This document shows positions 8,588-11,632 of a stretch of DNA of 41,747 nucleotides, in pieces. Source of the stretch: a virus; the IMG/VR virus record IMGVR_UViG_3300022696_000071, positions 1-41,747 of that record. One strand, 5' to 3'. The position numbers and the translations under genes are program-made. A model generated the notes under the pieces. The model was not told where the DNA came from and searched no databases. It saw nothing but the letters and a program-made list of their open reading frames with translations. Each line of letters starts with the position of its first letter. The first letter of the stretch is position 1.

Positions 8588-11500
8588 TTACTTATTTAAT
8601 CTTTGAGCAATTATATCCACATGATGTGAATATGCATGGAGAGATTTACATGAAAATGAAAGTGGTCCAGAGTTAATATCAAGTTCCCCGGCAATATATT
8701 CATTCAACAATGTAAAACCGCCCATGTTACATGGAAATCCAGAATTTCCAGTAACAGATATTTTATCATTTCTTCTCATAAAAAAATTTGTATTTCTATT
8801 TCGTATACACCATATCCTACCATCATATTTACGAATAGGCAATTTACCATCAACAAAATAAGTTCTATTAAATGATGCTTCTTTCCTATTAGATACATTA
8901 ACACATCCAGATTCATCATTTATTTTCGCTTGAAATCCCAAAGATAATGCTAATCGTTGAAACCAATCTCTTTTTTCTTTATCTTGTGAATAAAAGCAAT
9001 ATGCTGTATGTTTAAAACTACCATCACCTTTTATCATTGCAATAAATATTGACATTCTATCATCATAAGTAAGATTTAATAATTCTTCTGTTGGTCTTCT
9101 ATTTGGAATTATTTCTTTTATCCATTTAGTAGATTTAGCAGAAATATAAAAGTTATACATTTCAACAAGTAAACCATCTGGATACTCTTTATCTGCAATT
9201 TTATACATTGTCTTTGATTCAAATTTTTCAGTAAAGTTCATACCAGATTCAGTTAATAATTCTCTTATATCAACATGGTACTTCTTAGCACTTTGATAAA
9301 TATACACACCATCACATTTTTCTAAATAATGTGAATCAGTTAAAATCCAACCAATTAGAGATGCCTTTACATAACCCAATTCCCATGTTCCTTCTTTATA
9401 TGGTGCTGAAACTGGTATAAGTGATCCATCTTTTGGTATTAATTCATCTGCCTTAGTATATTGATAATCTTTAATAATTCGTTTATTTCCAGAATGTGTA
9501 ACATATTTATGTAACATTCTATGGTTTGGAGTTATTAATTGAGATATATTTGCAGTTTCTATTTCATACATATCACCACTATAATTAGATTTAATTATTT
9601 CATCAATATTACAAAATTCCATTTCCCATTTATCTATATTTAATGTAGCCGCTTTATCATCTTTAGATATAGTATCTATATTGCGCCATCCATTATCTGT
9701 TAATATTTCAGAATCATCACTCAAACAATATACATCCCAAGAATTATGGGTCATAATTGGTATATATCCACAACAAAATAAATGAGAATCAGAATCAACA
9801 GATATATCATAAACATTTCCGAAATTAAGTATATTACTAACACTTTTTATAGTTCTTAGTATATAGTCACCTTTTCTTAATTTTGGACGATTCTTACTCA
9901 TATTATATATACTAAAACACCCACTACTTTTTATGTATCTATTATCTTTTCTGAAATATACAAGTCGTTCTGGTTCTCTATAAATTGAAACATTTTTATT
10001 CACCATTTTACTTAAATATGACATATCAATTATAAGATCATTACTTGCTGAACAACAAGTATCACCAGAAATCCACCCATCTAAAAAAGAATTTATAAGT
10101 TCATTAGAAAGTGAAAATACAATATTTGGAACTTTTTTCGATTTAGCTCCATGTTTAAATCCTAAATTTTTATACATTCTTACAAGAAAACCTATTGATA
10201 TATTTAAAACTTCACATCCATCACGATGTTCAATAGATGGTGTATAATCAAATTCATTCTTAAGAAAATTTATTACCCTATTAAAAGTATCAGTCTTTTT
10301 GGAATTTATAGCTATTCTAAGACTACTTGAATTATTACCATACCAGCCATCTGCGCACCATAAACCCATAAAATACGAAAAATCATTTGAAATTTTAAAC
10401 ATTCTATTTGTTTGTATTTTAAAACAATGAATAGTTAAATTAGATTCATTATATAAATGGCTATTATATGCTTGTTTTATAGATATCATTTTTATATCTC
10501 TATTACTATCAGTATATGAAATGTTATCTTCTTTAAATCTATGAAAATCAGATAATTCTAAATTACAAACTTTAACTTTATTACTATCTTTAAAGATCTC
10601 AAATAAATCAATTACATCTACTGAATTATACTGAAAATCAATACTATATGGCTCTAATAACACATCACCATCAACCAAATCATATACATATTTTAATTCA
10701 ATATTATCATTTTTTAATATTGGAAATCTGTGATTTTCTGATGCATTTATTTTATAACCACCATATATCTCAATTTCTCTGATATCTGATCTATATGAAA
10801 CTTGTGAATCAGTAACATTAGACCATATCTGATTATAATCTTTATCAAATGATATAACTTCCACTGAATCACCACATTTTATATATTGATATATTTCTTT
10901 TATAATAGTTCTTTTTAAAACTGAATTATGTTTTATGATTATTGGTGTATCTCCATCTAAACATCGATATATTACATTAGTTGTCAAATACCCATCTATA
11001 ATTCTAAAATCTAATCCACGTAAACATGGAGAAGTTCCTCTATCCGCTTCACTTATGAATAAAGATTCTGTACCATATGCTTTACATTTATTATTTGTAC
11101 ATACGTTATTGGATGCTTTTTTCGTATGCAACTTTCCACATGTTTTACATTTAAGATATGGTCTATCATATGCACGATTTGAATCAGGATTACCTATTGT
11201 AATATAGCAATGTTCATTTCCGATACCATGTGTTTTAAAATGATTTATAACCCATTCAGTTTGATTATAGCTGCATAAATTCTCATCCCCATAAATATAA
11301 TTTGTATTATCTCCAACTATCCATGTTGCATATCTATATTCTTCATTTGGTTCAAGATTAGAATCCATTATATAATTAGCAAAATATTGATCTATTTCAT
11401 CATCAGTAGTTGGTGGCGGTAAAGATACCCCTTCAGGCATTCTTGGTGATAATGGTCTACTTTGTGGATACCTAATAAAACCAGATGCAAAATCAAAAGT

Positions 11501-11632
11501 AACTCTCTCTGATCCAGCATGTGAACCAGATGTAATTGAATATCTCCTCCCTTCTTTATATAATTGATATAATAATTGATGCCAAGCATCATCCAAATCT
11601 CGCGCATTAATAAAAACTGGTCTAAATTTCAT
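8588..11632 (-). CDS. Thymidylate synthase family enzyme (ThyA / dUMP hydroxymethylase-like) precursor interrupted by two inteins; the spliced product is ~279 aa
   Basis: Extein motifs align to E. coli ThyA: [22 protein letters not shown] ~ [31 protein letters not shown]...[11 protein letters not shown] ~ [24 protein letters not shown] (catalytic Cys); [11 protein letters not shown] ~ SCDVF L GLPFN (Asn177 equivalent, so uracil-specific); C-terminal SLHAYSHHV ~ GDTHLYSNHM. The start is assigned to M21 (ATG at 11632) because of a perfect AGGAGG SD 7 nt upstream. The in-frame M1 at 11692 has no SD. Confidence 0.8.
   Translation of the reverse strand: [1014 protein letters not shown]
8744..9727 (-). 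mobile_element. Intein 2 (328 aa) with LAGLIDADG-type endonuclease domain, inserted 5 codons downstream of intein 1 (between DVY and S-GFPCN)
   Basis: Block A [14 protein letters not shown], block B TPNHRML, LAGLIDADG-like [11 protein letters not shown] and [12 protein letters not shown], non-canonical C-terminal ...ISVTGN with +1 Ser. Residues 656-983. The flanking extein residues restore a continuous ThyA motif. Confidence 0.7.
9743..10963 (-). mobile_element. Intein 1 (407 aa) with LAGLIDADG homing-endonuclease domain, inserted between Arg and Ser of the conserved YxR|SxD motif
   Basis: Block A [10 protein letters not shown], block B NHRFPIL, LAGLIDADG-like [10 protein letters not shown] and [11 protein letters not shown]-terminal [24 protein letters not shown] followed by +1 Ser. 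Residues 244-650 of the M1-numbered ORF. Confidence 0.8.

Follow-up and report, generated by a model that had tools for sequence, protein, structure and literature searches.

Inteins in the enzymes of thymidylate synthesis have been described for ThyX, in phages as well as in bacteria (COG1351 in PMC4760082, ThyX-like in PMC5050341, and IPR003669 in a 2025 survey of actinobacteriophages). In the intein surveys searched, no intein of the ThyA/dCMP-hydroxymethylase superfamily is listed, only those of ThyX, and text searches for such inteins gave nothing relevant. Group I introns are known in genes of thymidylate synthase (TS), namely those of T4 td (with I-TevI) and Bacillus mojavensis thyA (with I-BmoI), and I-TevI cleaves in CAACG, the Gln-Arg codons (PMC5009752). 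Regarding multiple inteins in one protein, the insertion sites a and c of DnaB are two residues apart (PMC4760082), and a crAss-like TerL carries two inteins (PMC7886860). The present analysis concerns a gene at 8588..11632 on the minus strand of the viral record IMGVR_UViG_3300022696_000071 of IMG/VR, which was analyzed over its whole stretch of 41,747 nucleotides (the window). Its product is a TS-like protein carrying two LAGLIDADG inteins with five residues between them.

It is highly probable that this gene specifies a phage precursor of the ThyA superfamily, whose dUMP-binding loop is interrupted by two independently acquired inteins that splice out. The anatomy of the locus, the family memberships of its parts, the host protein regained by removal of both inserts, the recurrence of each intein type at its site in other alleles and the discordance between intein and extein similarities were all established computationally.

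The Precursor Gene and Its Host Protein

In the list of open reading frames (ORFs) of the window, the minus-strand ORF 8588..11692 comprises 1034 codons without a stop. Its Met21, the ATG at 11632, is almost certainly the true start, because an AGGAGG is found upstream, the N-termini of homologues (MKF(K/R)PVF) line up with it, and a database protein of 1014 aa (P0121) is 100% identical to the precursor from this Met onward. From there to the stop codon at 8588-8590, the precursor has 1014 aa and 117.6 kDa. Its parts are the following:

8588..11632, minus strand: precursor gene, ThyA-superfamily extein with two inteins (from the ORF list, the ribosome-binding site, the homologue N-termini and P0121)
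11640..11645, minus strand: Shine-Dalgarno-like AGGAGG with a 7-nt spacer to ATG 11632 (read from the sequence)
10964..11632, minus strand: N-extein, aa 1-223, ending in ...VIYR with the phosphate-binding Arg (from alignment to intein-less homologues and solved TS structures)
11084..11149, minus strand: Zn-ribbon-like CxxC...CxxxxC insert of the N-extein, upstream of the catalytic Cys (weak PF23549 match)
11006-11032, minus strand: catalytic-Cys motif SPCLRGLDF of the N-extein (same alignments)
9743..10963, minus strand: intein 1, 407 aa, 47.3 kDa, Cys1 ... IPIMTHN, +1 Ser (PF14890, TIGR01445, NF045703, Foldseek)
9728..9742, minus strand: pentapeptide SWDVY between the inteins, which serves intein 1 as C-extein and intein 2 as N-extein
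8744..9727, minus strand: intein 2, 328 aa, 38.4 kDa, Cys1 ... ISVTGN, +1 Ser (TIGR01445, PF14528, AF2, Foldseek)
8591..8743, minus strand: C-extein, 51 aa, SGFPCN ... KSLHAY ... RLNK (from the alignments)

The earlier note, made from the sequence alone, had proposed two inteins of 407 and 328 aa with a spacer of five codons, SWDVY, and these boundaries (9743-10963 and 8744-9727) proved exact. The stop-codon frequency on the strand of the gene is 0.087 per codon, and the probability that the 735 intein codons remain open is ∼1e-29, thus the open frame of the inteins is not due to chance.

In silico removal of both inteins results in a protein of 279 aa and 31.9 kDa. The PF00303 score is 33.7 bits for this spliced protein versus 15.2 bits for the unspliced precursor (cutoff 24.3), and the match is contiguous over both junctions, confined to the C-terminal ∼80 residues. 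The 279-aa extein was aligned to >330 intein-less proteins of 240-330 aa with 100% coverage and 45-62% identity. No gap is found through VIYR^SWDxx^xGxPxN (insertion points are marked by ^ here and below), and SWDVY pairs with SWDLx of the intein-less homologues. In detail, residues C203, R223, S224, D226, N234, and H264 (spliced numbering) are invariant across 18 family members and pair with the catalytic Cys, the Arg-Ser pair, the Asp, the Asn, and the His of solved thymidylate synthases. The Asn of SGFPCN in the C-extein is the equivalent of E. coli TS Asn177. The profile of the TS-like family matches 118 solved TS sequences (best E=2.4e-10). The placement of the host gene in the TS family, as well as the restoration of YR-SWDxx-xGxPxN upon removal of both inserts, were anticipated by the earlier note and hold with the score of the spliced protein, its conserved catalytic residues and its ungapped alignment.

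The best NCBIfam equivalog of the spliced protein is the "methanogen-type" TIGR03283, with 58.8 bits versus a cutoff of 174.55, and the other ThyA equivalogs (TIGR03284 and PRK01827 among the models) give 20-35 bits versus cutoffs of 108-405. Because its scores are far under every NCBIfam equivalog cutoff, the protein is filed in the TS superfamily as, by its profile scores, a divergent branch and not a canonical ThyA. The Zn-ribbon-like insert is found in approximately half of the aligned TS-like homologues, including the protein of the window, and is missing from the others.

The base of the substrate is read from Asn177/229 in TS versus Asp179 in the dCMP hydroxymethylase of T4. The retained and family-invariant Asn234 fits a uracil substrate, so that dUMP is a reasonable prediction, be it for methylation or for hydroxymethylation. 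A dCTP-deaminase-like gene in the window (33380-33991) fits this prediction.

Two Separate Inteins

Separate splicing blocks and two LAGLIDADG motifs, as in homing endonucleases of the two-motif, monomeric type, are found in each insert and are located as follows:

10718-10759, minus strand: block B of intein 1, SENH
10340-10375 and 10058-10087, minus strand: LAGLIDADG motifs of intein 1, ending in ...WCADGW and ...ISGDT
9767-9814, minus strand: block F of intein 1
9509-9547, minus strand: block B of intein 2, TPNHRM
9326-9358 and 9014-9046, minus strand: LAGLIDADG motifs of intein 2, ending in ...ILTDS and ...IKGDGS
8768-8818, minus strand: block F of intein 2, RIWCI...

The acidic residue that ends each LAGLIDADG motif is kept in both inteins. 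Intein 1 passes PF14890 (36.0 bits, cutoff 35.8) and TIGR01445 (28.7 bits, cutoff 24.5), matches the intein region of NF045703 with 66 bits and can be aligned, over ∼290 residues, with the intein portions of several NCBIfam models named "intein-containing". In a sequence search of solved structures, both of its ends match the mini-inteins of TFIIB. Its penultimate His (block G:6) is present. The AlphaFold2 (AF2) model of intein 1, built on an alignment with three homologues only, has a predicted local distance difference test (pLDDT) score of 65. The top Foldseek matches of this model are all intein-endonucleases (PI-TkoII, Tli/Pho VMA, PI-PfuI, and PI-SceI), and I-DmoI is also matched.

Respectively, intein 2 passes TIGR01445 (30.0 bits, cutoff 24.5) and PF14528, that is, LAGLIDADG_3 (27.3 bits, cutoff 22.5), and is below the cutoff of PF14890 (22.3 vs. 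35.8 bits). Its AF2 model has a pLDDT of 92.7 and a predicted template modeling score (pTM) of 0.89, with the Tli/Pho VMA inteins, PI-SceI, PI-TkoII, and I-DmoI as the top Foldseek matches. The initial proposal of two complete inteins with LAGLIDADG motifs is therefore borne out by the profile matches, TIGR01445 for both inserts with PF14890 for intein 1 and PF14528 for intein 2, and by the residues of the splice junctions.

The two inserts show no detectable similarity to each other (BLASTP E=1.4), which argues for two acquisitions and neither for a duplication nor for two halves of one element. The adjacency of the inserts is all that favors a single intein, discontinuous or nested, or the recent duplication of one intein in tandem. 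Apart from the lack of similarity, a full set of A, B, F, and G blocks and a LAGLIDADG pair are present in each insert, other alleles carry either one by itself at the respective site, and intein 2 is folded confidently on its own in the model. The discontinuous intein, which had been named beforehand as the alternative, and the tandem duplication are thus rejected, and the likelihood left to them is close to nil.

Recurrence of the Insertion Sites in Other Alleles

The whole precursor was compared exhaustively with 1.84 billion representative proteins, and the alleles were mapped with a hidden Markov model of the extein and their junctions read. This search was far more informative than the word-indexed protein searches with the two inteins, which gave 7 and 3 matches. 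In the TS-like gene family, three intein sites are found:

Site c, PP^C...HN^CLR: immediately preceding the catalytic Cys, which doubles as the +1 nucleophile; occupied in P0126, P0146, P0162, and P0256
Site a, [FY]R^C...HN^SWD: the site of intein 1; at least 17 other alleles, all with relatives of intein 1
Site b, SWDxx^C...TGN^[SC]G: the site of intein 2; at least 7 alleles (P0122, P0270/P0278, P0127, P0129, P0132, and fragments), all with relatives of intein 2

In all alleles at sites a and b, both the residue that begins the intein and the +1 residue of the C-extein are nucleophiles. P0126 and P0146 are occupied at c and a. Occupancy of a and b is found only in the protein of the window; any other protein with this pair should out-score the single-intein alleles, but no such protein came up. 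The junction was also sought as a degenerate DNA pattern (HN-SWDxx-C...(S/T)E.LT), which has one match in the window and no matches in the IMG/VR and JGI metagenome contigs, an absence that is not absolute because the contig of the window itself was not found in those collections either. Within these searches, the suggested rarity of two inteins so close together stands. By this sequence comparison, the new elements here include the recurrence of each intein type alone at its site and the third site at the catalytic Cys.

The similarities of inteins and exteins are discordant. The inteins most similar to intein 1 (42-43% identity) are housed in the most distant exteins (32-36%), and the nearest intein-bearing exteins (58-61%) house the most divergent site-a inteins (25-33%). 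For instance, in P0127 the identity to intein 2 is 48%, versus 34% for the extein. Such a discordance is what horizontal homing, and not codivergence, would be expected to leave, and the alignments indicate horizontal traffic of inteins in the TS-like family. The ongoing traffic that the earlier note had supposed is in line with these identities and with the single-intein alleles.

The relatives at site a span the stages of the homing cycle, from intact endonuclease motifs to many empty sites. P0137, P0140, P0146, P0150, and P0257 have an Asp to Asn change in LAGLIDADG motif 1, P0128 has degenerate motifs and P0131 is a mini-intein of 174 aa. At site b, the +1 position (8741-8743 in the window) is Gly or Ser in the intein-less alleles and Ser or Cys in all occupied ones; thus, an invasion of a Gly allele would need co-conversion of this codon. 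The GC content at third codon positions of the inteins (0.106 and 0.113) resembles the values of the neighboring genes (0.12-0.155), which argues against their recent arrival from a genome of different composition.

In 185,579 species genomes of GTDB, the TS-like family is found on contigs of metagenome-assembled genomes alone, with scattered taxonomy, and all members are intein-less. Distant members (30-37% identity) are found in the DPANN archaea Woesearchaeota, Pacearchaeota, and Nanoarchaeota. No relatives of intein 1 were found in the GTDB genomes. No match to the locus was obtained by Megablast among 50,697 phage records, and tblastn of the extein against cultured phages gave distant TS matches only.

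The Intein 2 Family and Its Probable Splicing Chemistry

On sequence grounds, intein 2 is placed in a large and known family of phage inteins. Among cultured phages, 341 records match intein 2 by tblastn, 218 of which are mycobacteriophages with full-length relatives, and in all matches listed the mycobacteriophage relatives lie in a DNA methylase gene. The family was examined through the 119 full-length relatives among the representative-protein matches. Their hosts are mostly N6/N4 DNA methyltransferases (DNMTs), with metallophosphatases and one integrase in addition. The conservation of the splicing positions is as follows:

Position 1: Cys in 117/119
Block F:4: Cys in 103/119
Block G:5: Thr in 104/119
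Block G:6 (penultimate): Gly in 118/119
Terminal residue: Asn in 116/119
+1 residue: Ser in 93, Thr in 14, and Cys in 10 of 119

Outside the TS genes, the closest relatives of the site-b inteins, at 39-40% identity, are located in methylases, at the site W.Y.^SGFPK. SGFP is the most frequent C-flank of the family (50/119) and resembles SWDxY^SGFP. The similarity of these flanks hints that the site-b lineage may have arisen by an ectopic jump between look-alike methylase and TS sites.

A penultimate His is common in inteins but not obligatory. Intein 2 lacks it (block G:6) and has Gly in its place. The Gly-Asn end had been pointed out in the earlier note; the reading of the residues is correct, but the end is not peculiar to this copy, since 118 of the 119 family members share it. 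The intein of gp51 from mycobacteriophage Bethlehem aligns end to end with intein 2 (E=2e-20). With the native penultimate Gly, splicing of the gp51 intein is complete, its G316H mutant is strongly slowed, and its endonuclease is toxic, that is, active (PMC5050341). The family norm and the splicing of this homologue show that the Gly-Asn end is compatible with efficient splicing, and its interpretation as a sign of decay was rejected on both grounds.

These data bear also on the more general idea that one or both inteins are splicing-dead relics and the gene a disrupted pseudogene, in a phage relying on the thymidylate synthesis of its host. Intein 2 has neither the penultimate His nor the His of block F, intein 1 has Ser at B:7, and the five-residue spacing is without precedent in the representative-protein and junction-pattern searches. 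On the other hand, the in-frame ORF of 3 kb has stayed open where 8.7% of the codons are stops, all nucleophiles of the splice junctions and both terminal Asn are intact, and the extein has kept all its catalytic residues. Furthermore, the Gly-Asn architecture is maintained in 118/119 relatives, and the gp51 homologue of the same architecture splices efficiently. The decay of the locus is thus considered improbable, and splicing inteins are the preferred interpretation.

Class 3 inteins have no N-terminal nucleophile, use the Cys of block F:4 as the first nucleophile and carry a W-C-T triplet. Intein 2 has Met71 (B:12), Cys307 (F:4), Thr326 (G:5), and Gly327. Its family could be of class 3, or mixed between class 1 and class 3, with Cys307 forming the first thioester instead of, or besides, Cys1. 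The closest solved sequence relative of intein 2 is the AceL NrdHF intein, with which it shares the above four residues, and the F:4 Cys and G:5 Thr are found in 103/119 and 104/119 family members, respectively. Experiments have proven class 3 splicing for the AceL NrdHF intein, whose triplet is the unusual Met-Cys-Thr and which has no His at F:13 or G:6 (PMC7891396). However, class 3 is defined by the missing N-terminal nucleophile, whereas Cys1 is even more conserved in the family (117/119) than the F:4 Cys and the G:5 Thr. It is kept in 14 of the 16 members with Ser, Gly, or Asp at F:4, and the other two lack the terminal Asn as well; those 14 members must use Cys1, because the F:4 Cys is absent there. 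In addition, the homologous gp51 intein was placed in class 1 by Kelley et al. (PMC5050341). Intein 2 was thus not assigned to class 3, as Cys1 is conserved. Based on the conservation of Cys1, also where the F:4 Cys is missing, class 1 chemistry is favored for intein 2, and a class 3 or mixed route appears unlikely.

Proposed Splicing and Homing of the Intein Pair

Each intein would remove itself post-translationally by the canonical class 1 route. An N-S acyl shift at Cys1 would be followed by trans-esterification onto the +1 Ser, cyclization of the terminal Asn, and an O-N shift that restores the peptide bond. After both splicings, the rejoined exteins would constitute the enzyme of 31.9 kDa. 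The computed masses of the expected species are 117.6, 79.2/70.3, 47.3, 38.4, and 31.9 kDa. The precursor is expected to be inactive until both inteins leave, because the Arg-Ser phosphate pair and the uracil-binding residues Asp...Asn are split apart.

This raises the question whether the inteins act as a conditional switch, in which delayed, redox-gated (e.g., through a Cys1-Cys307 disulfide), or ordered splicing times the synthesis of dTMP or modified dUMP during infection. With both inteins located in the loop that binds the substrate, the precursor must be inactive, and two conserved Cys are near the active center of intein 2. For phage inteins, Kelley et al. (PMC5050341) argue that the penultimate residue tunes the splicing rate, and they observed disulfide-bonded conformers of the precursor. 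Nevertheless, most alleles of the TS-like family carry no intein, which means that the enzyme does not require such regulation, and the sporadic distribution together with the decay of endonucleases in relatives fits selfish elements better. A regulatory role seems very improbable, and the inteins are rather regarded as homing elements.

As for homing, the LAGLIDADG endonucleases would cut empty-site alleles during co-infection, and the inteins would be copied in by repair. The empty-site DNA over both insertion points is TATCGA^TCTTGGGATGTATAT^TCTGGATTTCCA. Since the sites are 15 bp apart, recombination between them should be rare; therefore, the pair may be co-converted as one mobile unit, and either endonuclease could mobilize it. 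A further step would be a composite homing unit, in which the recognition sites overlap owing to the 15-bp spacing, so that an intein in one site alters the target at the other, in combination with an intein 2 family intermediate between class 1 and class 3 that is able to use either nucleophile. The basis offered for the intermediate is the presence of both Cys1 and the block F Cys, the Thr of G:5 and the lack of an assisting His. We regard this combined proposal as speculative and rather doubtful.

Several points weigh against two inteins that both splice and home as proposed. The model of intein 1 is of low confidence (pLDDT 65), Ser replaces Thr in its block B (B:7) and, in the profile search, no Pfam LAGLIDADG model was matched under E<1 by this intein. 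In intein 2, both His that usually aid the cyclization of Asn are missing and a class-3-like Cys is present in block F, so its chemistry may not be purely class 1. Two bulky modules, each of a Hint domain and an endonuclease, on a linker of five residues might interfere with the folding of each other. The idea of one mobile unit through co-conversion is solely inferred, and among the phage records searched no near-identical genome with an empty or half-filled site was found. Taking all these into account, the precursor with two splicing inteins is still held as highly probable.

Phage Context

The window is phage DNA, as it encodes a primase (12208-13254), a clamp-loader ATPase, and a fusion of uracil-DNA glycosylase (UDG) with a family B DNA polymerase (PolB). 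The phage is large and uncultured, and database entries for the precursor protein come from two JGI contigs, of which the longer has 201 kb. Other observations on the window are the following:

1-8160, minus strand: a frame of at least 2720 codons running off the left end, with a GC content of 0.33 (above the rest) and tail/virion-structural PHROG matches
20334-21251: PfkB kinase
21591-22268: S-adenosylmethionine (SAM) methyltransferase
22295-23356 and 28339-29568: two glycosyltransferases
29819-30595: QueC-like protein
31460-32029: AAA_33 kinase
36255-38840, plus strand: the UDG-domain/PolB fusion, whose PolB match ends at profile position 250/453 with the end of the ORF
38837-39610: radical-SAM gene, next after the UDG-PolB fusion

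The polymerase of the window may be split or truncated. The nucleotide and modification genes in 20334-34000 make it possible that the phage modifies its DNA. The giant ORF, together with the fusion of UDG and PolB, led to a crAss-like origin being considered; in descriptions of crAss-like phages, Thy1/ThyX is found. The Rfam and tRNA scans of the window gave nothing, so no group I intron is present in it.

Significance and Comparison with Known Systems

With this locus, the ThyA superfamily is added to the known hosts of inteins, next to the unrelated ThyX, which alone is listed in the searched surveys. Within one branch of the superfamily, three sites have been used by inteins, that is, the catalytic Cys, the Arg^Ser pair, and a position five codons further on. 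The tandem arrangement with a shared extein of five residues is a natural test of how close two Hint domains can sit and still splice, and also raises the matters of the splicing order and of the coexistence of two homing endonucleases with overlapping targets. In protein engineering, the two inteins could possibly serve as a compact orthogonal pair. The general understanding of inteins is unchanged by these results: the elements themselves are ordinary inteins, and it is their arrangement which is unusual and experimentally attractive.

Like the ThyX inteins, those of the window are in an enzyme of thymidylate synthesis, but the ThyA fold is unrelated to ThyX. Like the inteins of DnaB and of the crAss-like TerL, they are independent insertions in conserved motifs of one protein. 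In DnaB, however, the reported co-occupancy is of sites b and a, which are distant in sequence; for two occupied sites five residues apart, neither a published report nor another database protein was found. With PI-SceI, PI-TkoII, PI-PfuI, and the Tli/Pho VMA inteins, both models share the Hint domain with an inserted two-motif LAGLIDADG endonuclease, although the identity is 10-16% and the host proteins and organisms are different.

Of the solved structures, that of the AceL NrdHF intein (PDB 6ZGQ; PMC7891396) comes closest in sequence to intein 2 in its N-terminal half. The two have in common the (S/T)PNHRM block B, the F:4 Cys, the G:5 Thr, and the lack of His at F:13 and G:6. The AceL NrdHF intein starts with Ala, is split, and has no endonuclease, whereas intein 2 starts with Cys, is contiguous, and contains a LAGLIDADG domain. 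Cys1, a block F with VWC, and the ...TGN end are common to intein 2 and the Bethlehem gp51 intein. Intein 2 differs from the gp51 and the mycobacteriophage DNMT inteins in its sequence (23-26% identity), in its ThyA-family host instead of a methylase or phosphoesterase (gp51 being a recombination directionality factor/metallophosphoesterase), and in its position five residues from a second intein.

The introns of T4 td and B. mojavensis thyA target the same segment of the active-site loop as the two inteins. In T-even td, exon 1 ends with ...YQRSVDVFLG^ and exon 2 starts with LPFNIASY. When R-S-V-D-V-F-L-G-L-P-F-N of T4 is aligned to the window, the td intron falls 6 bp, or two codons, downstream of where intein 2 is inserted. 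The insertion of the thyA intron, as derived from the substrate oligo and the numbering G-2, A+4/A+5, G+7, A+8/C+9 (PMC3664794), is between the Arg and Ser codons, which is exactly the site of intein 1. Unlike the inteins, these elements are RNA-splicing group I introns with GIY-YIG endonucleases, located in canonical ThyA genes. The coincidence of intron and intein sites is one of convergence on conserved codons and not of homology. Judging from the aligned insertion points, four unrelated self-splicing elements converge on ∼12 codons, a clear case in which GIY-YIG introns and LAGLIDADG inteins, as unrelated mobile elements, have come to occupy the same invariant codons.

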